From sequence record NC_029091.1: a stretch of DNA of 64,000 bases; one strand, given 5' to 3'. Both the position numbers and the translations under genes were made by a program. Shown here piece by piece: positions 1 to 45,073 of the stretch. The notes below the pieces were generated by a model, which saw nothing but the letters and a program-made list of their open reading frames with translations, had not been told where the DNA came from and did not search any database. Every line of letters begins with the position of its first letter. Within the stretch, counting starts at the first letter, position 1. The DNA comes from Escherichia phage APCEc01.

Positions 1-976
1 CTGTTTGGTCCATTGCCATAATAACAGGTGGTCGGTTTTCCATATAAATCATTTCACCGGAATGATGTTGCAGGTCTCTAGGGTCGTAATAATCCTTTTC
101 TGCTTTAACATTAGGGTCATTTGGATTTTTCTTAGCTTCTAACGGGTTTGCGATAATTGATATCTGTCTAAAACCCTTGTTACCAGGCAAAGCTGCCTCA
201 GGGAAATAAACAGAATCAAAATATGCTTTAAACCGCATCGTATTAGCTTTAACACGGTAAATCAAACCGTAGTCATCTTGTTGCCAAGTTAAGTTATTTT
301 CATATCCCCAACGGGTGGGGTCTTCTTTAATTTCTTCCGGCCATGGAACTACAAGATATTCGTTAGTGCAACGGTTAATTGACACATCGGCAGGAATCTC
401 ATAAAGATATTCCCAAATATATCCATCACCGGTTTCGATAACCCCATTAGCATCGCCTCTGCCTTCAGGAGGAGACATAGAACGAACAGACGGAGTCCAT
501 TTACCACCCAATTTAAGACATTCATCTTTATTATCTAAAGATTCTATTGAACAGAGCCCTACGTCAGGGACATCTAAACAACGGTAAATTAACCAACCAG
601 CTCCAACTTCTGTCGCGTTGTACGGAGCAGTATTACATGCGACTATATCGTTAATTCTAAACGTGTAAGGGTCTGGATATCGCACATCTCCCCAATCACG
701 TCTAGGAATAACAGAATCTAACATTGAAGGTAAAACTTTAACGGTGCCCATCATATGGGTCCACATATCAGTAACACCAAGAACAGAATCTGTAGGATAA
801 GGTGGGGCGAAGCCCACCTCATTTTCATTTGACGCCCAAGGCTCTGAACGTCCAAACGTAATATAAATGGAGTTCTTATCATCTCCATCCCCAACTGAAT
901 TATAAAAATTCAGCATTTTCTCTGTTCTAAATTTTGATGTAACTATTGCACGATAGATAACACTTGAATCATTCAT
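1..976 (-). CDS. 8: baseplate wedge protein gp8 (C-terminal end cut by window edge)
   Basis: Minus-strand ATG at 976-974; translation begins MNDSSVIYRAIVTSKFRTEKMLNFYNS, the T4-type gp8 N-terminus; start overlaps gp7 stop; ORF runs to position 1. Confidence 0.9.
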   Translation of the reverse strand, partial: MNDSSVIYRAIVTSKFRTEKMLNFYNSVGDGDDKNSIYITFGRSEPWASNENEVGFAPPYPTDSVLGVTDMWTHMMGTVKVLPSMLDSVIPRRDWGDVRYPDPYTFRINDIVACNTAPYNATEVGAGWLIYRCLDVPDVGLCSIESLDNKDECLKLGGKWTPSVRSMSPPEGRGDANGVIETGDGYIWEYLYEIPADVSINRCTNEYLVVPWPEEIKEDPTRWGYENNLTWQQDDYGLIYRVKANTMRFKAYFDSVYFPEAALPGNKGFRQISIIANPLEAKKNPNDPNVKAEKDYYDPRDLQHHSGEMIYMENRPPVIMAMDQT

Positions 977-3900
977 CTAATTTAACCTGTGGTGGATTCA
1001 CGGGGTCTCTTGGATTTCCTACATTATCGATTAACCGTTGTTCAACCAAATCTCTAAATCTAGAGAATGTTGTTCCGGACGCATCAAATAATGGGCTCAT
1101 CAGTTTACGTCGTTCCGATGGAAGTTGACCTTGAAATATGGAGTTATTGTTTTCAGCGTTATAATCTTCAGGTAATGGATAATCTTGACCAGCCATAGGG
1201 CCTATTTCATATATCGCTTTACCTGTAATAGGGTCAAACTCAACATTTCCTTGTGGGTCTAATTTAGCCACTCGGTCTGCATATTTAGTCGGTAATCCAG
1301 AATCCCACTTATAGTTTTTGTATTTATTAATAATGGTTTCAACATGTTTAAGTGTTAATCCGGTGTTAATAAACATTGTGAGAAGGGTAATTGCGATAAA
1401 TCCAAATCCAACCGGATGAACAAAACGTAATACGTCTGATTTCCAACGAGATGATGGAAGTTTAGATTTAATCTTCATTACGTAGTATGCTCTACCACGA
1501 TTTATGTAATCGATGTTGTTCTGAGAAAGCTCTTTACCTTTAATACCACGAACAATTTCGCCTTCAAAACCAGGGAGTCTTTCAGCTTTAACTTCCTGTC
1601 CTTGGATTAAACGACCTAAGAGGTTGTGAATTGTTACAGTCCATTGTAATTTACCTTTAGAGTAACTTCTCTCGATATACGTCACATTACAACGTCCTGT
1701 AGCGGTGTATATGGTTTGTCCGACCAAATCTTCTGTCAACGAATCAGATTCAATGATGATATCATATTCGGTCCCGGAACTAGATTCAATTTCAATTTCA
1801 ACATCTTCGTTATAAAGCACTTTAAACAAGAATTTATACGATGCTTCAGTTCCTTTAGTTGAATAGAAGTCATAACTTCTTGATTCAAAGAAACGAGACA
1901 CTAAATCGCGTTTTTCGGCGTTTAAGTAAATGTTTCGTTTATAAATCTCAGACCATAAATATTCCCACGCATGTTCTTCGCGCGGATATTGATTTTTAAT
2001 AAGATTTAAAAGGTTGTTATAATGGGTCCCATAACCGTCAGAAAGATACTGAATATAAGCCTCGCAGAATGCTTCAAAGTTTGTATTATCTAAAAGATAA
2101 GACTCCGGCATCATTGTAGTGAGCAATGGTCGTAAATCCGGGTCTGCAATACCGTCCTCTTCTACAGGAGTCCATGTGGTATCTTTTTCTTGGTTTTGTA
2201 ACGATGCTGTTAAGAATATATTAGTAGGCTTCCAAATTATAGAAACATTATCTCTAACACGATAACTAAAATCATAATAAGAAATAATCTCACCTGATGA
2301 TTTATAGAAAATCATGCCGGATGCATATTTTTTAAATCCGGCGAAATCTACGTTAGGCATCACTATTGTACAGTCACCGTCCTTCCAATATTCATGAACT
2401 TCACGGTCTGAAGAACTAAGTGGATGATTCTCAATAACCTTAGTGTAAAGTAAATCAGAATAAATTACAACAGCCTTGTCTGAGTTATTAATCCAACATC
2501 GAGTACCGGACTTTCTAGAATAACTAAAGAATGGCTCAGCATAGTATTCCATCGGTTGAGGAGTGAACGATTCCCATTGAGAGTCTTCAGTTGAAATAAA
2601 TGCCATCATATGATAATGTTTATCAGCCAACCATTCGCGAGGATACTCATATTTAACAGCACCGATTAAACCGTACTTGATTTGTGTTTTTGGGTCATCA
2701 ACAATATCCGATTCTAGAAATTTAAAATTACTAGATGAAATAGATAACTCAACACCATCAGTAGACATACTGGTGTACCCAGGTTCAATACGACGGCGTT
2801 CTTCTTCAGTATTACCAAACACACGTTTAAATGTGCCAGCATCATGGTCTAGAACGTAAACGCCCTTATCAGCAGAATCAACAATAGGAGTAGTCCTCGG
2901 GTCGTCATTAAGATTAACAACTTCACCGATAATCAGTGCAAATATTTTACCGCCGACAGAATCCATTTTATAGCAAACTGCCTTAGGGTTACCTGTGATG
3001 TTAAATGTTTCTTGTTCAAACAAACGTTCGGAATACGTCGGAGATAACGGGTCTGAATCAATAGGGGCATTACTAGTTTTAATAAAACGAACTTTATCTC
3101 GAGCAGCAACGTATACATAATCGTCATTGCAAACGATAGCTTCTGCAATACGTGACACGTTAGCAGGTAATGATGCGTAGTTACCAAATATTTCTACATC
3201 AAATCCTAAATTTAACTGGTCACCAATTTTAGCAAATGTTATATCTTGAGAACTAAATCTCACATCACCAGCAGACCAACGAACGTCAGTTGATTTACGG
3301 CCGTAAAATAATTTATCATACCCAAGAACATACGTGGTATAACCTGTCTGGTAATACACTGTTCTTGATACAGGGTACCCTACACGGTCATTAAACAATT
3401 TAACCGATTTCCAGGTTTGTCCCTTATCATTAGAGACTTTAACCACAGGCTGATACCGTTCAAACAAATAAAGAATTCCTTCGGATTCCATCAAATAAAC
3501 ACGGTTTATATCATGACACACCTGTTGAATCGAACCTTGAATTTCATGATACTCATTTTCGCCAATAATGAAATTTTTAATAGATGAAATATCCGCATAA
3601 GCAGGGCTAAATTGGAACGATTCATTCATTAGAGCTGCCATTATAGTGTCGTTATTAAAATCGACATAAGACATGTTGTTATTTGTAAATTTTTCTCTAA
3701 TAAAAGTGTTAGCCAATTGCATTTCAATCATATGTTGAAATGTATACGCGTTAGTCTGAAATGATTCAAATATTTCGGTATATACCCAATCAGATCTCTC
3801 GAAGCCTTCGGCGGCAGTTGATACACGAATAATATAAGAAGTTAATGGGTCTAAGCTACTTTCGAACCAGTTGCTATTAGGAGTATATCCTAAATTTATC

Positions 3901-23669: not shown

Positions 23670-24158
23670 ATGAATATATTTGAAATGCTTCGTAATGACG
23701 AAGGTCTTAGACTGACTTTATACAAAGACACTGAAGGCTTTTGGACGATTGGCATAGGCCATTTAGTAACAAAGAACCCGTCTTTAGCCGTAGCTAAAGC
23801 TGAACTTGACAGAATGATCGGTCGTAAATGCAACGGTACAATTACCCTTGATGAGGCTGAAAAGCTATTTAATGAAGACGTTGATAAAGCCGTCCGCGGA
23901 ATCTTGGGTAATGCTAAACTTAAACCGGTATATGATTCTTTAGACGCAGTTCGTCGGTGTGCATTGGTCAATATGGTCTTCCAAATGGGTGTAGCAGGAG
24001 TCGCCGGTTTTACTAATTCTCTTCGTATGCTTCAACAGAAACGTTGGGATGAAGCGGCAGTAAATCTAGCCCAATCTAAATGGTATCGTCAGACACCTAA
24101 TCGCGCGAAACGCGTAATCTCAACATTTAAAACAGGAACTTGGAAAGCGTATATATGA
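23670..24158 (+). CDS. e: endolysin, T4 lysozyme family
   Basis: 162-aa product [32 protein letters not shown]..., close to T4 lysozyme. Confidence 0.95.
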
Positions 24159-24436
24159 AAACATATAGTGAATTTTTATCAGAATCTATTCTTAACGAAG
24201 CTACTGACACATTTGCAACTAAGCTAGGTGCAGCTTTGGTTGAAGCTGAAAGTCTATTAGCACGTATTTCTGAACTTGCTAGTAAGATAGATACTCGCAA
24301 ATTTGAACGTACCAGCGATATCGCTAAGCTTGAAGCCTTGTTGCGTATGTGCGATAAACCAGAAGAAATCGCTAAGAACGGCTCGCTGATGAAACAACGT
24401 CTTGAAAAATATATTTCAGGCGCTTCAGAAAAATAG
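24155..24436 (+). CDS. internal protein candidate with capsid-targeting N-terminus
   Basis: 93 aa starting [11 protein letters not shown]; start overlaps lysozyme stop (ATGA). Confidence 0.65.
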
Positions 24437-24437
24437 T

Positions 24438-24490
24438 GTTTACTTCCTCCAAGGGTTTTGATACTATACATTCATCAACTACTTGGAGGA
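24438..24490 (+). promoter_or_regulatory. early promoter with stem-loop
   Basis: GTTTACT at 24438-24444, TACTAT at 24462-24467, inverted repeat TTCCTCCAAG/CTTGGAGGAA whose 3' arm is the denV RBS. Confidence 0.55.
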
Positions 24491-24494
24491 AATT

Positions 24495-24908
24495 ATGACT
24501 CGTATCAATTTAACACTTGTTTCTGAACTGTCCGACCAACATCTTATGGCTGAGTATCGTGAATTACCACGCGTATTTGGTGCAGTCCGTAAACATGTTC
24601 AAAACGGTAAACGTGTAAAGGATTTTAAAATCTCTCCAACATTTATCTTAGGCACAGGTCACGTAACATTCTTTTACGACAAACTCGAATTTTTACGTTT
24701 ACGTCAAATCGAGCTAATCGCTGAATGCTTGAAACGTGGTTTCAAAATCAAGGACACGACTGTCCAGGATATTTCCGACATTCCTGTAGAATTTCGTAAT
24801 AATTACGTCCCGTCCGAAGCGTCCATTGCGATAAGTCAAGCACGCTTAGATGAAAAAATTGCTCAACGTCCGACTTGGTACAAATACTATGGTAAATCAA
24901 TTTACTAA
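24495..24908 (+). CDS. denV: endonuclease V (pyrimidine-dimer DNA glycosylase)
   Basis: 137-aa product [34 protein letters not shown]..., close to T4 DenV. Confidence 0.92.
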
Positions 24909-24915
24909 GGAAAAA

Positions 24916-25176
24916 ATGAAAATGTATCAAGAATTTATCATTGAAGTAGATGCCAAAGACCCCAAATTTAAAGTTAAAGCTTTCATTGGTGATGCGGAAG
25001 ACTTTGGCTCATTAAAACGTAATGGGTATTCTTTCTTGGGTGGCGATGGTAAAGAAATCAACACCTATGCAAAACGTAGTGAAATTGCTTATGTTGTAGT
25101 AAGTCCTAAAGTAGATGTTGACGATATTGGATACGATTTTAACAACTTCGGAATTATTTCTGGCGGTAAAGCTTAA
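24916..25176 (+). CDS. internal protein candidate with capsid-targeting N-terminus
   Basis: 86 aa starting MKMYQEFIIEV. Confidence 0.6.
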   Translation: MKMYQEFIIEVDAKDPKFKVKAFIGDAEDFGSLKRNGYSFLGGDGKEINTYAKRSEIAYVVVSPKVDVDDIGYDFNNFGIISGGKA

Positions 25177-25179
25177 ATT

Positions 25180-25215
25180 GTTTACGCTTAAGTATTAATA
25201 TGGTATAATTACTCT
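25180..25215 (+). promoter_or_regulatory. early promoter (GTTTACG -35, TATAAT -10)
   Basis: GTTTACG at 25180-25186, TGGTATAAT at 25201-25209. Confidence 0.55.
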
Positions 25216-25239
25216 ATCAAAACAAACAAGGAAACAAAA

Positions 25240-25554
25240 ATGAAAACGTATAAAGAATTTATTGCAGAATCCGCCAACCAACGCGTTGAAGGTGGTTATA
25301 TTTGGATTGAACAAGTTGAGCCACCGAGCCGCACTTCTACAGGTAAATGGAAAATTACTGTTGACGGTCCTGGCGGTAAACGTAGGACTCTTAAAGAAAT
25401 TAACGGGTACTATGAAGAAGCTCTTTCGGATGCAGGAACTTACATGATGCAAATCATGATTAAAAACCCTGAAAACCGTTTTGCAGCTAAAGTCTTCCGT
25501 CGTATTGGTAATAAACTTTATGATGCATACTCTAAAAACTTCCCTAAAGAATAA
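25240..25554 (+). CDS. internal protein candidate with capsid-targeting N-terminus
   Basis: 104 aa starting MKTYKEFIAES. Confidence 0.65.
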   Translation: MKTYKEFIAESANQRVEGGYIWIEQVEPPSRTSTGKWKITVDGPGGKRRTLKEINGYYEEALSDAGTYMMQIMIKNPENRFAAKVFRRIGNKLYDAYSKNFPKE

Positions 25555-25579
25555 CATAAATTAAAACAATAGGAACAAA

Positions 25580-25909
25580 ATGAAAACATATCAGGAGTTT
25601 ATCACTGAAGTTACATTATCTGCGGAACAGAAAGCTGCTATCGAAGAAGGTAAAAATCCCAAAGTAACATACAAAGTAAATAGTAAAGGCGTTTTTGATG
25701 GCTTGGTTCAAGACCCTGAATTGAAAAAAGCTCTTTCTAAAACTAATGCGTACTTTGCTCCTAAATTTAACACAGCCGGTGTACTTATTGGATTGGACGT
25801 ATTCAACTCTAAAGGTGTTCTATCTAATGCCTTTGGTTATGCCGCTAACAAAATTACCAAAGCAGCATGGGAATCCAATACCAAACAAGCTCAAAAGCCT
25901 AGAGTATAA
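25580..25909 (+). CDS. internal protein candidate with capsid-targeting N-terminus
   Basis: 109 aa starting MKTYQEFITEV. Confidence 0.65.
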   Translation: MKTYQEFITEVTLSAEQKAAIEEGKNPKVTYKVNSKGVFDGLVQDPELKKALSKTNAYFAPKFNTAGVLIGLDVFNSKGVLSNAFGYAANKITKAAWESNTKQAQKPRV

Positions 25910-26082
25910 TTCTTGCCTAATAAAGGGAAACGCAACCTCTCCTCATGAACGTCGAGTCCTCTGAGTGATGTACCTTTTCCAACCTGTAATAAGGTCGAGC
26001 CCAAGTGCGGTAATGGGTTTACATAGCGAGTCGAAGGACCTAACATGTGCCACGGAATGGCCCAAACCTTAAGAGAAATAAT

Positions 26083-26622
26083 ATGAGAACATTTTTAACT
26101 GGACCTTATCTATCCCTGATGAATGCTTTTACACACCATTCTGATGCTAGAGTAGAAGAAATTTGTAAGAACGGTTATGTCCCACCATTTGAAGACGTAC
26201 TCAAGCAGTACTGTACACTTCGTTTAGACGGCGGCCGACAATCAGGTAAATCAATTGCTGTGACTAACTTTGCTGCTAATTGGCTGTATGATGGCGGAAC
26301 AGTTATTGTTCTTTCTAATACTTCAGCTTATGCTAAAATTTCTGCTGGCAACATTGAAAAAGAATTTTCGCGTTATTCTAGCGACGATATTCGATTCCGT
26401 TTATTTACTGATTCTGTTCGTAGTTTTATTGGCAATGAAGGTTCTAAATTCCGTGGATTAACGCTTTCTCGTATTCTGTATATAATTGACGAGCCTATTA
26501 AAGCTCCTGATATGGATAAGATTTACAATGTACATATTAAAACAGTCCAACACTGTTGCAAAAGCAAATATTGCATCGGCGGTAATGCTCGTCCTCAATT
26601 TTTTGTGATTGGAATGCAATGA
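26083..26622 (+). CDS. hypothetical protein with P-loop-like motif
   Basis: 179-aa product; LDGGRQSGKSIAV resembles a Walker A motif. Confidence 0.5.
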   Translation: MRTFLTGPYLSLMNAFTHHSDARVEEICKNGYVPPFEDVLKQYCTLRLDGGRQSGKSIAVTNFAANWLYDGGTVIVLSNTSAYAKISAGNIEKEFSRYSSDDIRFRLFTDSVRSFIGNEGSKFRGLTLSRILYIIDEPIKAPDMDKIYNVHIKTVQHCCKSKYCIGGNARPQFFVIGMQ

Positions 26623-26927
26623 TGACCACTATTGAAGTTTTTGAATATTGTTATAACAGCCCAGTATGCAATAAAAGGGCCCTTGTAGAAAATTACGAGA
26701 TTTACCATTTTAAACCTAAACGATACCGTTTGACTAAAGGTCCGTTCGCAGGGCAGCAGGTTCTTTGTACTGCTCCTAATGCACGGTTGATGACTAGTAT
26801 TCCACATTTCAAAATGGAATTTATTGACGGGCCATTTAAGGGATTAATCACTCAAAGTTTAATGGCGTTTAATTCCGACCCATTTTTGATTAAAGAAAAA
26901 ACTTGGATAAATTTATTTTCTAATTGA
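26619..26927 (+). CDS. hypothetical protein
   Basis: 102-aa ORF, start overlaps upstream stop. Confidence 0.5.
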   Translation: MMTTIEVFEYCYNSPVCNKRALVENYEIYHFKPKRYRLTKGPFAGQQVLCTAPNARLMTSIPHFKMEFIDGPFKGLITQSLMAFNSDPFLIKEKTWINLFSN

Positions 26928-26933
26928 GGTTAT

Positions 26934-27296
26934 ATGAAAGCATATCAAATTCTTGAAGGCACACACAAAGGCACTATTTATTTTGAAGACGGTACTCAAG
27001 CCCGGATTATTGTCTCTAAGACTTTTAAAGAAGACGCTATTGTAGACCCGGAAATTTTCTACGGTTTGCATGCCCGTGAAATTGAAATTGAACATCACCC
27101 TAAAGTTAAAATTGAAGGTGGTCAACATCTGAACGTTAACGTTCTGCGTCGTGAAACTCTAGAAGATGCAGTTAAGCATCCAGAAAAATATCCGCAGCTG
27201 ACCATCCGTGTATCTGGTTATGCAGTTCGCTTTAACTCTCTGACTCCGGAACAGCAGCGCGACGTTATCGCTCGCACCTTTACTGAGAGTCTATAA
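26934..27296 (+). CDS. autonomous glycyl-radical cofactor (GrcA/YfiD-like)
   Basis: 120 aa; C-terminal [20 protein letters not shown] carries the glycyl-radical fingerprint RVSGYAV. Confidence 0.75.
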
Positions 27297-27520
27297 TGGC
27301 TAAATTGATTATAGAAGGGTCTGAAGATGTTTTAAAATGTTTTGCCGCCTGGTTTAGTTGCTCAGGCGAGCAATCATTCACTGAAGCATTTAGAATGGGT
27401 GATATTACCGGAAACTATCCGGCAACTGATATCACTGTACGTGGATATGGTATTAATGAGCCTATCCAATTGGTCGAATATGACCTTGCCACTGATGAGG
27501 AAATTCCTTATGTCGATTGA
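27296..27520 (+). CDS. hypothetical protein
   Basis: 74-aa ORF. Confidence 0.45.
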   Translation: MAKLIIEGSEDVLKCFAAWFSCSGEQSFTEAFRMGDITGNYPATDITVRGYGINEPIQLVEYDLATDEEIPYVD

Positions 27521-27776
27521 AGACATCAAAGGCTACAAGCCGCATACCGATGATAAAATCGGTAAAGTGAACGCTATTAAAGATGCAGAAGTCCGTCTTG
27601 GATTGTTGTTTGATGCTCTGATTGAAGAAGCATATATCTTGAAAGAAAATGAAACAGAGCAACAAACCAAAGAAGATATGGATGCAGTGCAGGCTCTTAA
27701 GTATGCTAAGCAACATCTAAAAGAAGCCAGCATGTGGGCGTGTCGTGCAGTATTTCGACCTGAGGAAAAATACTAA
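27510..27776 (+). CDS. hypothetical protein
   Basis: 88-aa product from internal ATG (MSIEDIKGYKPHTDDK...). Confidence 0.45.
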   Translation: MSIEDIKGYKPHTDDKIGKVNAIKDAEVRLGLLFDALIEEAYILKENETEQQTKEDMDAVQALKYAKQHLKEASMWACRAVFRPEEKY

Positions 27777-27991
27777 TGGCTTCTACTATTACTGGGTTAT
27801 TGGACTTTCAAGAAAAGGTCAACAAAATTTGTAGTGAATACTTAAAGTATCTTGAAGAAGACCTTGAAGATTGTAAGGAAGAAGGCGAAGAAGACTATGC
27901 TGACCAGCGTCGACGCCAAATCGAAGAGATGAGGCATTTCGCCAATATGGTATCTAAAGAATCTTGGGCTTTAACTCCATTTTATCAATAA
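27776..27991 (+). CDS. hypothetical acidic protein
   Basis: 71-aa ORF. Confidence 0.45.
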   Translation: MASTITGLLDFQEKVNKICSEYLKYLEEDLEDCKEEGEEDYADQRRRQIEEMRHFANMVSKESWALTPFYQ

Positions 27992-27995
27992 AGTA

Positions 27996-28046
27996 GTTTA
28001 CTTCTCCTCTAGTTGTGTTACTATAGACCTGTCAACTAGAGGAGAA
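27996..28046 (+). promoter_or_regulatory. early promoter with stem-loop
   Basis: GTTTACT at 27996-28002, TACTAT at 28019-28024, 13-bp inverted repeat TCTCCTCTAGTTG/CAACTAGAGGAGA; 3' arm contains the regB RBS. Confidence 0.6.
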
Positions 28047-28052
28047 ATCAAA

Positions 28053-28511
28053 ATGACTATCAATTCAGACGTTTTTATCCGCCGTAATAAACTCCGTCGA
28101 ATCTTTGAAACGGAGTTCCGCAAAATAAATGCCGGTATAAAAGATGCTGCAAAGTCTCTTGGACTACCAGGCTTTCATATCAAGTATTCTCAACATCTCT
28201 TAGATCGTGCCATCCAGAGAGAAATAGATGAGAATTACGTTTTTGAATTATTTCATAAAGTAAAAAATCATGTTAAAGAAGTTGCAGAATTTTTATCAAT
28301 GCCGGCACGTCCAGATGTTGATGAAGATTTTGTCGAAGGTGTCGAATATCGCCCAGGCCGTTTAGAAATAACTGATGGAAATCTTTGGTTAGGACTTACA
28401 GTTTGTCGCGAAAATCCGGCATTCAAAATGAAGACTCTTCAATGCAGAATGGCTATTATTAACAATAAACGACTACCAGGAAAAGCTTCTAAAGCAGTGA
28501 TTAAAATCTAG
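28053..28511 (+). CDS. regB: site-specific endoribonuclease RegB
   Basis: 152 aa, MTINSDVFIRRNKLRRIFETEFRKIN...AIINNKRLPGKASKAVIKI, close to T4 RegB. Confidence 0.9.
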   Translation: MTINSDVFIRRNKLRRIFETEFRKINAGIKDAAKSLGLPGFHIKYSQHLLDRAIQREIDENYVFELFHKVKNHVKEVAEFLSMPARPDVDEDFVEGVEYRPGRLEITDGNLWLGLTVCRENPAFKMKTLQCRMAIINNKRLPGKASKAVIKI

Positions 28512-28519
28512 AGGTAAAC

Positions 28520-29062
28520 ATGAGAAAAGCACTACTCGCTGGTCTATTTGCTCTTTCATTATCAGCACATAGCTCCGAGCATACTTTTAGTAATGTCCAA
28601 CTCGATAACTTGAATTATGCTTATCAGTTTGGGGAACAGTTTTCTAAGGATGGAAAATTTAAAACGCATGAAAATATGCATAAGAAAGGACTTGGATACA
28701 TAATGGCCGCAATACTATGGCAGGAATCATCTGCCGGTATTAATCTTAAAGATAAGAAAGGTCACCATGCGTATGGAATGTTCCAAAATTATCTACCGAC
28801 AATGAGGGCAAGAATTAACCAGCTTGGTTATAATATGACTGATGCCCAAATTAAGAAAATGCTATCTAAGCGGTCTAATTCAGCCAGATGGGCTTATATC
28901 GAATTTTCTTATTGGTTAAATATACATAACGGGGATATAAGAAAAGCTATATCCTCATATAATGCGGGATGGAAGACAAGTGCCGGAAGTAAATATGCTT
29001 CTGAAGTCCTAGAAAAGGCTAATTACCTTAAATCAAATAAACTACTGGAAATAAAAGAATGA
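28520..29062 (+). CDS. secreted lytic-transglycosylase-like protein
   Basis: 180 aa, N-terminal signal peptide, WQESSAG...YGMFQ resembles the SLT catalytic motif. Confidence 0.55.
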   Translation: MRKALLAGLFALSLSAHSSEHTFSNVQLDNLNYAYQFGEQFSKDGKFKTHENMHKKGLGYIMAAILWQESSAGINLKDKKGHHAYGMFQNYLPTMRARINQLGYNMTDAQIKKMLSKRSNSARWAYIEFSYWLNIHNGDIRKAISSYNAGWKTSAGSKYASEVLEKANYLKSNKLLEIKE

Positions 29063-42318: not shown

Positions 42319-42792
42319 ATGTTATTATCAGGCGCAAAATATAAAGAAGAAAAACAAAAATTTTATGATGCACAGAACGGTAAGTGTCCTATTTGCCACC
42401 GTGAATTAGACCCTGATGTTCAAGGTAACCATCTTGACCACGACCACGAATTAAACGGGCCAAAAGCCGGTAGAGTTCGTGGATTACTCTGTAATCTGTG
42501 CAACGCAGCAGAAGGCCAAATGAAGCATAAGTTCAATCGTTCCGGTCTTAAAGGACGTGATGTTGACTACCTCGAATGGCTTGAAGCTCTTCTTGCTTAT
42601 TTGAAACAAGATTATTCTGATAATAATATCCATCCTAATTTTGTTCCAGACAAAACTAAAGAGTTCTCAAGACTAGGTAAAGAGGAAATGATGGCTGAGA
42701 TGCTTCAAAGAGGATTTGAATATAATGAATCTGACACCAAAACACAGTTAATAGCTTCATTTAAGAAGCAGCTTAGAAAGAGTTTAAAATGA
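42319..42792 (+). CDS. 49: endonuclease VII (Holliday junction resolvase) gp49
   Basis: 157 aa, MLLSGAKYKEEKQKFYDAQNGKCPICHREL...HLDHDHELNGPKAG..., close to T4 gp49. Confidence 0.93.
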   Translation: MLLSGAKYKEEKQKFYDAQNGKCPICHRELDPDVQGNHLDHDHELNGPKAGRVRGLLCNLCNAAEGQMKHKFNRSGLKGRDVDYLEWLEALLAYLKQDYSDNNIHPNFVPDKTKEFSRLGKEEMMAEMLQRGFEYNESDTKTQLIASFKKQLRKSLK

Positions 42793-44606
42793 CAATTGAA
42801 AAAGAAATTGAAGGATTGATTCATAAAACTAATAAAGACCTTTTAAACGAGAATGCTAATAAAGATTCTCGTGTTTTTCCAACTCAACGGGACCTTATGG
42901 CTGGTATTGTGTCTAAACACATTGCCAAAAATATGGTCCCGTCTTTTATTATGAAAGCACATGAAAGCGGAATTATCCATTTCCACGATATTGATTATTC
43001 CCCTGCTCTTCCGTTTACTAATTGCTGTTTAGTCGATTTAAAGGGGATGCTTGAGAACGGATTTAAATTAGGCAATGCTCAAATTGAAACGCCTAAATCT
43101 ATTGGCGTTGCTACTGCAATTATGGCACAAATTACTGCACAAGTTGCTTCCCATCAATACGGCGGAACGACTTTTGCTAATGTAGATAAAGTACTTTCTC
43201 CTTATGTTAAACGCACCTATGCAAAACATATTGAGGATGCAGAAAAATGGCAAATCGCTGATGCGTTAAATTATGCTCAATCTAAAACAGAAAAAGACGT
43301 ATACGATGCATTCCAAGCTTATGAATATGAAGTAAATACTCTCTTTAGTTCAAACGGACAAACGCCTTTTGTAACAATTACATTTGGTACGGGAACTGAC
43401 TGGACTGAACGAATGATTCAGAAAGCAATTCTGAAAAATCGTATTAAAGGTCTTGGTCGTGATGGGATAACTCCTATTTTTCCTAAACTTGTTATGTTCG
43501 TTGAAGAAGGTGTTAATCTTTATAAAGACGATCCGAACTATGATATTAAGCAGCTTGCGTTAGAATGTGCAAGCAAAAGAATGTATCCTGACATTATTTC
43601 GGTTAAGAATAATAAAGCTATCACCGGCTCATCTATTCCTGTTTCTCCAATGGGTTGTCGTAGTTTCTTGAGTGCATGGAAAGATTCAACTGGAAATGAA
43701 ATTCTTGACGGTCGTAATAATCTTGGCGTTGTAACACTGAATCTTCCTCGTATAGCATTAGATTCTTATATTGGAACACAGTTCAATGAACAGAAATTTG
43801 TTGAGCTATTTAACGAACGAATGGACCTGTGTTTTGAAGCCTTGATGTGTAGAATTAGTTCCTTAAAAGGAGTTAAAGCGACTGTTGCTCCTATTCTTTA
43901 CCAAGAAGGTGCATTCGGGGTTCGTCTTAAACCTGATGACGACATAATTGAGTTATTTAAAAACGGTAGAAGTTCAGTGTCTTTAGGATACATTGGTATT
44001 CACGAATTGAATATTCTTGTCGGTCGTGATATTGGGCAAGAAATTTTAACTAAAATGAATGCTCATCTTAAACAGTGGTCCGAAAGAACTGGATTTGCTT
44101 TTAGTTTGTATTCTACTCCTGCTGAAAACCTTTGTTACAGCTTCTGTAAACTTGATACAGAAAAATATGGAAGTGTAAAGGATGTTACTGATAAAGGTTG
44201 GTACACTAATAGTTTCCATGTTTCAGTAGAAGAAAATATTACTCCGTTTGAAAAGATTTCTCGTGAAGCGCCATATCATTTCATAGCGACAGGTGGTCAC
44301 ATTTCTTATGTTGAACTTCCAGATATGAAAAACAATTTAAAGGGACTTGAGGCCGTCTGGGATTATGCTGCACAACATTTAGATTATTTTGGTGTTAATA
44401 TGCCAGTGGATAAATGTTTTACATGTGGAAGTACCCATGAAATGACTCCTACTGAAAACGGATTTGTTTGTTCTATTTGTGGAGAAACTGATCCTAAAAA
44501 GATGAACACAATAAGAAGAACATGTGGTTATTTGGGAAATCCGAACGAACGCGGATTTAATCTCGGTAAAAATAAAGAAATCATGCATAGGGTTAAACAC
44601 CAATGA
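42789..44606 (+). CDS. nrdD: anaerobic ribonucleoside-triphosphate reductase NrdD
   Basis: 605-aa uninterrupted ORF (same length as T4 NrdD); C-terminal glycyl-radical motif RRTCGYLG. Confidence 0.93.
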   Translation: MTIEKEIEGLIHKTNKDLLNENANKDSRVFPTQRDLMAGIVSKHIAKNMVPSFIMKAHESGIIHFHDIDYSPALPFTNCCLVDLKGMLENGFKLGNAQIETPKSIGVATAIMAQITAQVASHQYGGTTFANVDKVLSPYVKRTYAKHIEDAEKWQIADALNYAQSKTEKDVYDAFQAYEYEVNTLFSSNGQTPFVTITFGTGTDWTERMIQKAILKNRIKGLGRDGITPIFPKLVMFVEEGVNLYKDDPNYDIKQLALECASKRMYPDIISVKNNKAITGSSIPVSPMGCRSFLSAWKDSTGNEILDGRNNLGVVTLNLPRIALDSYIGTQFNEQKFVELFNERMDLCFEALMCRISSLKGVKATVAPILYQEGAFGVRLKPDDDIIELFKNGRSSVSLGYIGIHELNILVGRDIGQEILTKMNAHLKQWSERTGFAFSLYSTPAENLCYSFCKLDTEKYGSVKDVTDKGWYTNSFHVSVEENITPFEKISREAPYHFIATGGHISYVELPDMKNNLKGLEAVWDYAAQHLDYFGVNMPVDKCFTCGSTHEMTPTENGFVCSICGETDPKKMNTIRRTCGYLGNPNERGFNLGKNKEIMHRVKHQ

Positions 44607-45073
44607 ATTATGATAGATTTTATCCTTGCGATTTTGTGAATGGCCCTGGATGCAGGGTCGTTCTTTTCGTTACGGGTTGTTTGCATAAATGCGAAGGGTG
44701 TTATAATAAATCAACATGGAATGCTAGAAATGGTGTTCCATTCACTGGTGAAACACTAGAACAATTAATTGAATGTTTGAATAATGATTATATAGAAGGA
44801 TTAACTATAACCGGAGGTGACCCTCTCTATCCTGATAACCGAGATGTTATTCATTGCATTGCTCAAACAGTAAAAAATCTTTATCCCAATAAAAGCATTT
44901 GGTTGTGGACAGGATATAAGTTTGAAGATATTAAACAACTAGAAATGCTTAAATATGTTGATGTTATTATTGATGGGAAGTATGAGAAAAATCTTCCGAC
45001 TAAAAAGCTGTGGCGAGGATCAGATAATCAGCGACTTTGGTCAAATACCGATGGGGTGTGGAAACATGATTAA
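44603..45073 (+). CDS. nrdG: anaerobic RNR activating enzyme NrdG (radical SAM)
   Basis: 156 aa with CLHKCEGC cluster motif; start overlaps nrdD stop. Confidence 0.9.
   Translation: MNYDRFYPCDFVNGPGCRVVLFVTGCLHKCEGCYNKSTWNARNGVPFTGETLEQLIECLNNDYIEGLTITGGDPLYPDNRDVIHCIAQTVKNLYPNKSIWLWTGYKFEDIKQLEMLKYVDVIIDGKYEKNLPTKKLWRGSDNQRLWSNTDGVWKHD

Follow-up and report, generated by a model that had tools for sequence, protein, structure and literature searches.

The protein encoded at positions 26934-27296 of the window, by which we mean the whole stretch of 64,000 nucleotides analysed from Escherichia phage APCEc01 (NC_029091.1), is the ortholog of phage T4 Vs.6, a small stand-alone glycyl-radical cofactor of the GrcA/YfiD type, and the half of its gene that encodes the radical domain appears to have been overwritten by the grcA gene of E. 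coli. Taken whole, the best explanation, which we consider highly probable, is that of a vs.6 ortholog acting as a GrcA-type spare part for pyruvate formate-lyase (PFL), with a role for the phage and with a radical half overwritten from the host. The identification by itself is correct, already known and annotated, and adds little, since the characterisation of the T4 ortholog dates from 2001 and the protein goes by the name of GrcA in databases already. The E. coli-identical island and the copying from host to phage are the sole part that goes beyond the literature within reach; the host-identical tract was not discussed in the literature searched (the original 2001 paper being outside reach), and it may have been noted before.

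The gene and the elements read at its borders were the following.

26934-27296, plus strand: vs.6 ortholog, a GrcA/YfiD-type (T4 Y06I) autonomous glycyl-radical cofactor of 120 residues, from the open reading frame, Pfam, PHROG and structure 6OWR
26926-26929, plus strand: GAGG ribosome-binding site, read from the sequence, 4 nt before the vs.6 ATG
27216-27218, plus strand: GGT codon of Gly95, the predicted radical site, from alignment with PFL Gly734 and YfiD Gly102

The open reading frame starts with ATG, and the GAGG in front of it overlaps the stop of the vs.7-like gene upstream, which ends at 26927; its own stop overlaps the start codon of the downstream gene (TAATG). This tight packing suggests that the gene is co-transcribed with its neighbours. 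A scan for promoters and terminators over 24400-28600 gave counts not above those of shuffled sequence, and transcription units are not deducible from it.

Most of what the sequence-only reading had claimed for the protein was borne out. Its coordinates and strand for the 120-residue frame were exact, whereas its description of a protein ending in RVSGYAV was right as to the presence of the fingerprint and wrong as to its place, which is near the C-terminus (residues 92-98 of 120, with 22 residues after it). The glycyl-radical domain that it had read from this motif was recovered by the Pfam model Gly_radical (PF01228; residues 60-101, 67.3 bits against a cut-off of 22.2, E = 2e-18). Of the solved structures, the NMR structure 6OWR (E. 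coli YfiD/GrcA) matched best, with an alignment spanning residues 21-120 at E = 3.5e-42, followed by the C-terminus of PFL (1H16 residues 693-759, E = 6.7e-27). Gly95 aligned with Gly734 of PFL (1H16) and Gly102 of YfiD (6OWR), and the radical glycine was invariant in the 14 of 14 representative phage homologs translated. Neither of the two outcomes named beforehand as refuting the reading, a missing glycyl-radical domain or a glycine not conserved on alignment, was thus observed. The likeness to a bacterial GrcA/YfiD spare part also held, the last 60 residues being 100% identical to those of E. coli GrcA. The T4 homolog mentioned in the same reading is Vs.6, which we take to be the protein named Y06I (Y06I_BPT4) in UniProt, and the window gene is its ortholog.

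The window protein and T4 Vs.6 (NP_049730) are both 120 residues long and share 94% amino acid identity; seven of the 120 residues differ, six of them in the N-terminal half. At the DNA level the gene is 99.7% identical to that of Shigella phage JK45, and the order e-denV-vs.8-vs.7-vs.6-vs.5-regB-vs.1-vs-tk.4-tk is common to the window, T4 (NC_000866) and JK45; the window is a segment of a T4-type phage genome. Orthology is thus indicated both by similarity over the full length and by position within the vs.8-vs.7-vs.6-vs.5 block. In RefSeq, the T4 and JK45 proteins are labelled 'autonomous glycyl radical cofactor GrcA'. PHROG 1209 was matched end to end (E = 1e-62, positions 1-120 of 121). 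With respect to the GrcA/YfiD family, taken here as TIGR04365 and IPR011140, the protein is small and stand-alone, has a C-terminal glycyl-radical half and carries RVSGYAV with the aligned glycine. The NCBIfam equivalog TIGR04365 gave 158.5 bits, 11.5 short of its curated cut-off of 170 (residues 18-120, model 23-126 of 126), because the N-terminus has diverged; membership in GrcA therefore rests on orthology to T4 Y06I and not on the model. The match to PFL covers just the last ~67 residues of that enzyme; the ten-stranded catalytic barrel with its thiyl-radical cysteine or cysteines, by which glycyl radical enzymes proper such as PFL and NrdD are defined, is missing, and the vs.6 product is a cofactor module and not an enzyme of this class by itself.

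Close DNA matches to the gene were found in 720 phage records, and tblastn gave a match in 1590, ranging over T4-like phages of Escherichia, Klebsiella, Enterobacter, Cronobacter, Yersinia and Aeromonas, T5-like phages and 7t3-like jumbo phages; a few of the tblastn matches were C-terminal only, to PFL-like genes. In the comparison of Nolan et al. (2006, PMC1524935), vs.6 was one of 11 ORFs that lacked an assigned function and were shared by every T4-like genome in the set. PHROG 1209 still bears the label 'unknown function' despite the published biochemistry of its T4 member, and the gene has been deposited as 'pyruvate formate-lyase', '2-ketobutyrate formate-lyase', 'ribonucleotide reductase subunit' and 'hypothetical protein'. 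Together with the narrow miss in TIGR04365, the PHROG label means that automated phage annotation still loses the gene.

Some neighbouring frames deserve mention for themselves. At least three small ORFs (24140-24436, 25240-25554 and 25580-25909) start with MKTY(S/K/Q)EF(L/I), a sequence similar to the leader that targets T4 internal proteins to the capsid, and a possible fourth lies within 24850-25176 (MKMYQEFIIE). They flank denV, and two internal head proteins are annotated at the matching positions of JK45; the region 24140-25909 looks like a variable internal-protein locus. The vs.8-like protein (26047-26622) belongs to PHROG 1488 (unknown function), and its residues 57-149 weakly matched phrog_2, the family of terminase large subunits (E = 9e-5); it may have a P-loop ATPase-like fold.

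The function of the T4 ortholog is documented by direct biochemistry. Andorfer et al. (2021, PMC8683613), relaying Wagner et al. (2001), describe 'spare part' proteins of ~14 kDa, YfiD of E. coli and Y06I of T4, on which the PFL activase puts a glycyl radical and which, once activated, form complexes with oxygen-cleaved PFL, whose activity comes back. By the same account, the structured C-terminal half of YfiD (residues 61-127) substitutes the lost end of PFL, and the N-terminal half, which is disordered (residues 1-60), favours binding and activation. A 2026 review (PMC13450708) gives YfiD and Y06I as the sole validated spare parts to date. Because the C-terminal 60 residues are identical to those of E. 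coli GrcA, the same biochemistry is to be expected of the window allele, with high confidence; the location of six of the seven differences from T4 Vs.6, in the half that affects binding, would count against full equivalence.

In the mechanism, which is that published for YfiD and T4 Y06I carried over to the window protein, oxygen cuts the active host PFL at its radical glycine, G734; residues 61-120 of the phage protein, which mimic PFL from ~700 to 759, would dock into the cleaved enzyme with the aid of the N-terminal half; and the host radical-SAM activase PflA would radicalise Gly95, with restoration of PFL activity. Expressed from the phage, the spare part would keep the conversion of pyruvate into acetyl-CoA and formate going in low-oxygen, fluctuating habitats (e.g., the gut); the restored flux would sustain the ATP supply during infection, and the formate could feed the phage NrdD/NrdG system as reductant. 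In T4 infection, transcription of the host is shut down and its DNA degraded. Such shut-off by T4-type phages would leave the cell without fresh GrcA or PFL, so that the phage copy would be the only continuing source of the spare part in infection. What the phage gains, the tie to NrdD through formate, and which of the two activases acts, PflA of the host or NrdG of the phage, are inferred.

Since the protein has the exact PflA recognition loop and a PFL-docking domain, it might also be imagined as a decoy that sequesters PflA or obstructs PFL and in this way redirects host fermentation, instead of as a repair part. We regard this as very improbable indeed: the T4 ortholog restored PFL activity and did not inhibit it (PMC8683613), and the sequence holds nothing that would disable the radical glycine or the motif around it.

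Two further genes of the window bear on the role of the protein.

42789-44606, plus strand: nrdD, class III (anaerobic) ribonucleotide reductase, 605 residues (PF13597, E = 2e-170; Gly_radical, E = 1e-25)
44603-45073, plus strand: nrdG, radical-SAM activase of NrdD (PF13353, E = 4e-48; Radical_SAM, E = 1e-7)

The frame of nrdD is a single unbroken one of 605 residues; that of T4 contains a group I intron with the homing endonuclease I-TevII, an intron which appears to be missing from the window phage. The spare-part gene had been described as encoded alongside nrdD and nrdG, from which an investment of the phage in anaerobic or microaerobic growth was deduced. Both genes are indeed present in the window, on the same strand as the vs.6 ortholog, but 'alongside' was an overstatement, as they are located 15.5 kb downstream, beyond many other genes. 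The characterised class III ribonucleotide reductases use formate as their reductant, and in the case of T4 NrdD a site for formate has been discussed (PMC4493059); since the product of PFL is the reductant of this class, a functional link between the vs.6 ortholog and nrdD/nrdG is plausible. In the Salmonella jumbo phage 7t3 (MK773491; positions 677-3324 of our locus L089), a GrcA-like gene is located directly between nrdD and nrdG, its stop overlapping the nrdG start, and 12 phage records cover at least 80% of this nrdD-GrcA-nrdG junction region. NrdD was found in 2912 phage records. The GrcA-like gene and nrdD occurred together in T4, the window, the T5-like phage S114 (MH370367) and jumbo phage 7t3, these four cases being spot checks and not a systematic test of co-occurrence. 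The co-carriage and the 7t3 arrangement lend some support to the proposed investment in low-oxygen growth, which would be a reasonable interpretation.

The position of the 7t3 gene and the presence of nrdD in the checked phage groups that have the gene would also fit a cofactor for the phage's own NrdD, which is likewise cleaved by oxygen at its radical glycine, in place of one for host PFL; a role in nucleotide metabolism was proposed from the common Gly_radical domain (Nolan et al., 2006, PMC1524935). We rejected this reading, which is very unlikely, because BLASTP found no similarity between the window protein and the window NrdD (best E = 10). In addition, the radical domain, which is 100% identical to that of E. 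coli GrcA, aligns with PFL 693-759 (E = 7e-27), and it is PFL that was rescued in the published biochemistry (PMC8683613).

With PFL kept as the target, the radical might still come from phage NrdG instead of, or besides, host PflA, which would make the phage independent of the latter. This is rather unlikely in our opinion, even if the window itself encodes NrdG, an activase of the radical-SAM type for glycyl radicals, and the stop of the 7t3 gene runs into the nrdG start. Glycyl-radical activases are usually partner-specific, which counts against it. Furthermore, the protein has the same recognition loop, residue for residue, as GrcA, the natural substrate of PflA, and Y06I was activated in vitro by PFL-AE (PMC8683613).

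The nucleotide sequence of the gene was clearly divided in two parts.

26934-27113, plus strand: phage-type 5' half, residues 1-60, with weak nucleotide similarity to E. coli grcA
27114-27284, plus strand: tract of 171 nt, host-derived, encoding residues 61-117 of the structured glycyl-radical domain and near-identical to E. coli grcA

In the nucleotide alignment, the first 179 nt displayed weak similarity to E. coli grcA, after which identity rose abruptly. Residues 21-59 align with YfiD 27-66 at about one third identity, and the 5' half is conserved among T4-like phages. The tract had five differences from E. coli grcA in 171 nt (97%), as compared to one in T4, so that the tract of the window has drifted further; in some sister phages it was 99-100% identical to the host gene. 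Over the 3' 183 nt, the window gene differed from E. coli grcA at eight positions, all synonymous and six of them towards A/T, versus three positions in T4 and two in Yersinia phage PYps5T; identity to Citrobacter amalonaticus grcA was 89.6% over this length, and E. coli and Salmonella grcA are there 84% identical to each other. In GC content the 5' half (36.7%) resembled the window as a whole (37.3%), whereas the 3' half had 47%. The boundary of the tract falls where the disordered half of YfiD gives way to the structured one.

When E. coli grcA was searched against the phage collection, 486 records had at least 95% identity, and among the matches listed for them the match began at grcA nt 200 every time. 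In a dereplicated IMG/VR sample, identities of at least 96.7% (96.7-98.9%) to E. coli grcA were found in six sequences only, all of T4 type, and all other phage lineages in the sample, among them further genera that infect E. coli (e.g., Krischvirus), stayed at or below 85%. E. coli grcA is about equally diverged from Citrobacter and Salmonella in both halves, which sets the direction of transfer from host to phage. All these alignments taken together indicate that, in the T4 clade, the radical-domain half was most likely overwritten by E. coli grcA via homologous recombination, the 5' half representing old, diverged phage sequence. Contamination of assemblies with host DNA was rejected as a source of the tract, as ~630 independent phage records carry it, including the T4 reference, with lineage-specific substitutions.

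A tract of host composition and near-host sequence could belong to a recently captured host fragment that is carried passively, with no selected function. This is scarcely credible for the present gene: the frame is full-length, the phage-specific 5' half has been kept across many T4-like genera, full-length homologs occur also in T5-like and jumbo phages, the substitutions in the tract are all synonymous, and the gene is retained where its neighbours diverge by 20-37%. Its spread over 1590 phage records and its conservation in the T4-like genomes of Nolan et al. likewise speak for selection.

Other homologs in IMG/VR differed in kind. In several 'viral' contigs (L163-L174 and L124) the matching sequence was the 3' end of a full-length pflB or, in one case, a host-type grcA with 91% identity to that of Yersinia artesiana in the 3' 183 nt; this is likely to be DNA of the host, in contigs that are misbinned or come from the flanks of prophages, and not phage spare parts. 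Metagenomic phage contigs of 33-154 kb (L114-L119 and L125) carried a separate group of GrcA homologs whose N-terminus is nearer to the host type (…SGSIWLIEDNKARCLVAKEV…) and whose 3' halves were closest (79-84%) to grcA of Pasteurellaceae (Haemophilus, Gallibacterium, Aggregatibacter) or Pantoea. To judge by these affinities, they may derive from phages of Pasteurellaceae.

T4-type loci fell into two haplogroups, one with the window, JK45, phiE142, Av-05 and a Mosigvirus, and the other with T4, PYps5T, OES_C-1 and several IMG/VR genomes. Divergence between them varied along the locus as follows.

Upstream flank: 20-36%
5' half of vs.6: 10% (17-19 of 180 nt)
171-nt tract, 27114-27284: 2.5% on average
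Downstream flank: 28-37%

The tract stands out as an island, with 0-5% divergence between lineages that are 20-37% apart in their flanks; the haplogroup of the window, when compared with T4, diverged by 10% in the 5' half and by about 30% in the flanks. This contrast argues that the tract is younger than its surroundings. The most extreme pair was that of loci L097 and L099, with 0 of 171 differences in the tract, 19 of 180 in the 5' half, and 39 of 200 and 59 of 209 in the flanks, and a single ancestral capture followed by clonal descent was rejected on account of it. Two histories are left by the contrast between tract and flanks, i.e., repeated copying from E. coli grcA or one capture and a later spread from phage to phage. 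That the radical-domain half has been repeatedly re-copied from the grcA of the infected E. coli, by a host-to-phage gene conversion which would be limited to the stretch with surviving homology, is in our estimation an evenly balanced proposition. In its favour, the least-drifted tracts of both lineages are 0-1 nt from E. coli grcA (0 differences in OES_C-1 and 1 in the Mosigvirus, one phage per haplogroup), and the right-hand ends differ, being AGCCTGTAA in OES_C-1 (E. coli-like), AGTTTGTAA in T4 and AGTCTATAA in the window. One capture followed by phage-to-phage spread of the tract alone is possible. Repeated conversion, if true, would hold the spare part of the phage in exact agreement with the PFL and PflA of the host.

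The five private substitutions of the window in the tract, four of them towards A/T, were present in none of 5426 E. coli genomes (best match 97.1%), and a distinct E. coli donor allele was rejected on this basis; with no such donor, the private changes look like drift after transfer. As for Klebsiella phages, no evidence of recent conversion was obtained, the Jiaodavirus tract being 88.5% identical to the nearest Klebsiella grcA among 80 host loci (K. pneumoniae absent).

The gene vs.6 is one of the very few auxiliary metabolic genes of phages with direct biochemistry. Its presence along with nrdD/nrdG would single these phages out as fitted for fluctuating habitats low in oxygen, which is relevant to phage therapy in the gut. 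The 171-nt island offers a clean and tractable case for the rate of host copying by a virulent phage that degrades host DNA.

Comparison with known systems places the window gene as follows. T4 Vs.6 is, like it, a mosaic with an E. coli-like 3' tract, although its 5' half and flanks belong to the other haplogroup. E. coli GrcA is also a small stand-alone protein and is identical over the C-terminal 60 residues (96-97% in DNA), with weak but real homology through most of the N-terminal half; in contrast, the window protein is seven residues shorter, its first ~20 residues are unrelated, and its gene belongs to a phage cluster instead of being under the host promoter. The host grcA promoter is oxygen- and acid-responsive. 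With PFL (PflB, 1H16), residues 54-120 align with 693-759, and the radical glycine and a 13-residue stretch are conserved; the window protein is the detachable end alone, without the catalytic barrel and without the Cys418/Cys419 pair, and therefore cannot act as an enzyme alone. Cyanophage psbA, in which intragenic recombination between host and phage was reportedly described by Zeidner in 2005 and Sullivan in 2006, is as here a case in which a metabolic gene of the host is carried by a phage and trades segments with its counterpart in the host, although the gene, the host and the phage group are other ones; in vs.6, the exchanged tract is one structural domain and stops where nucleotide homology ends.
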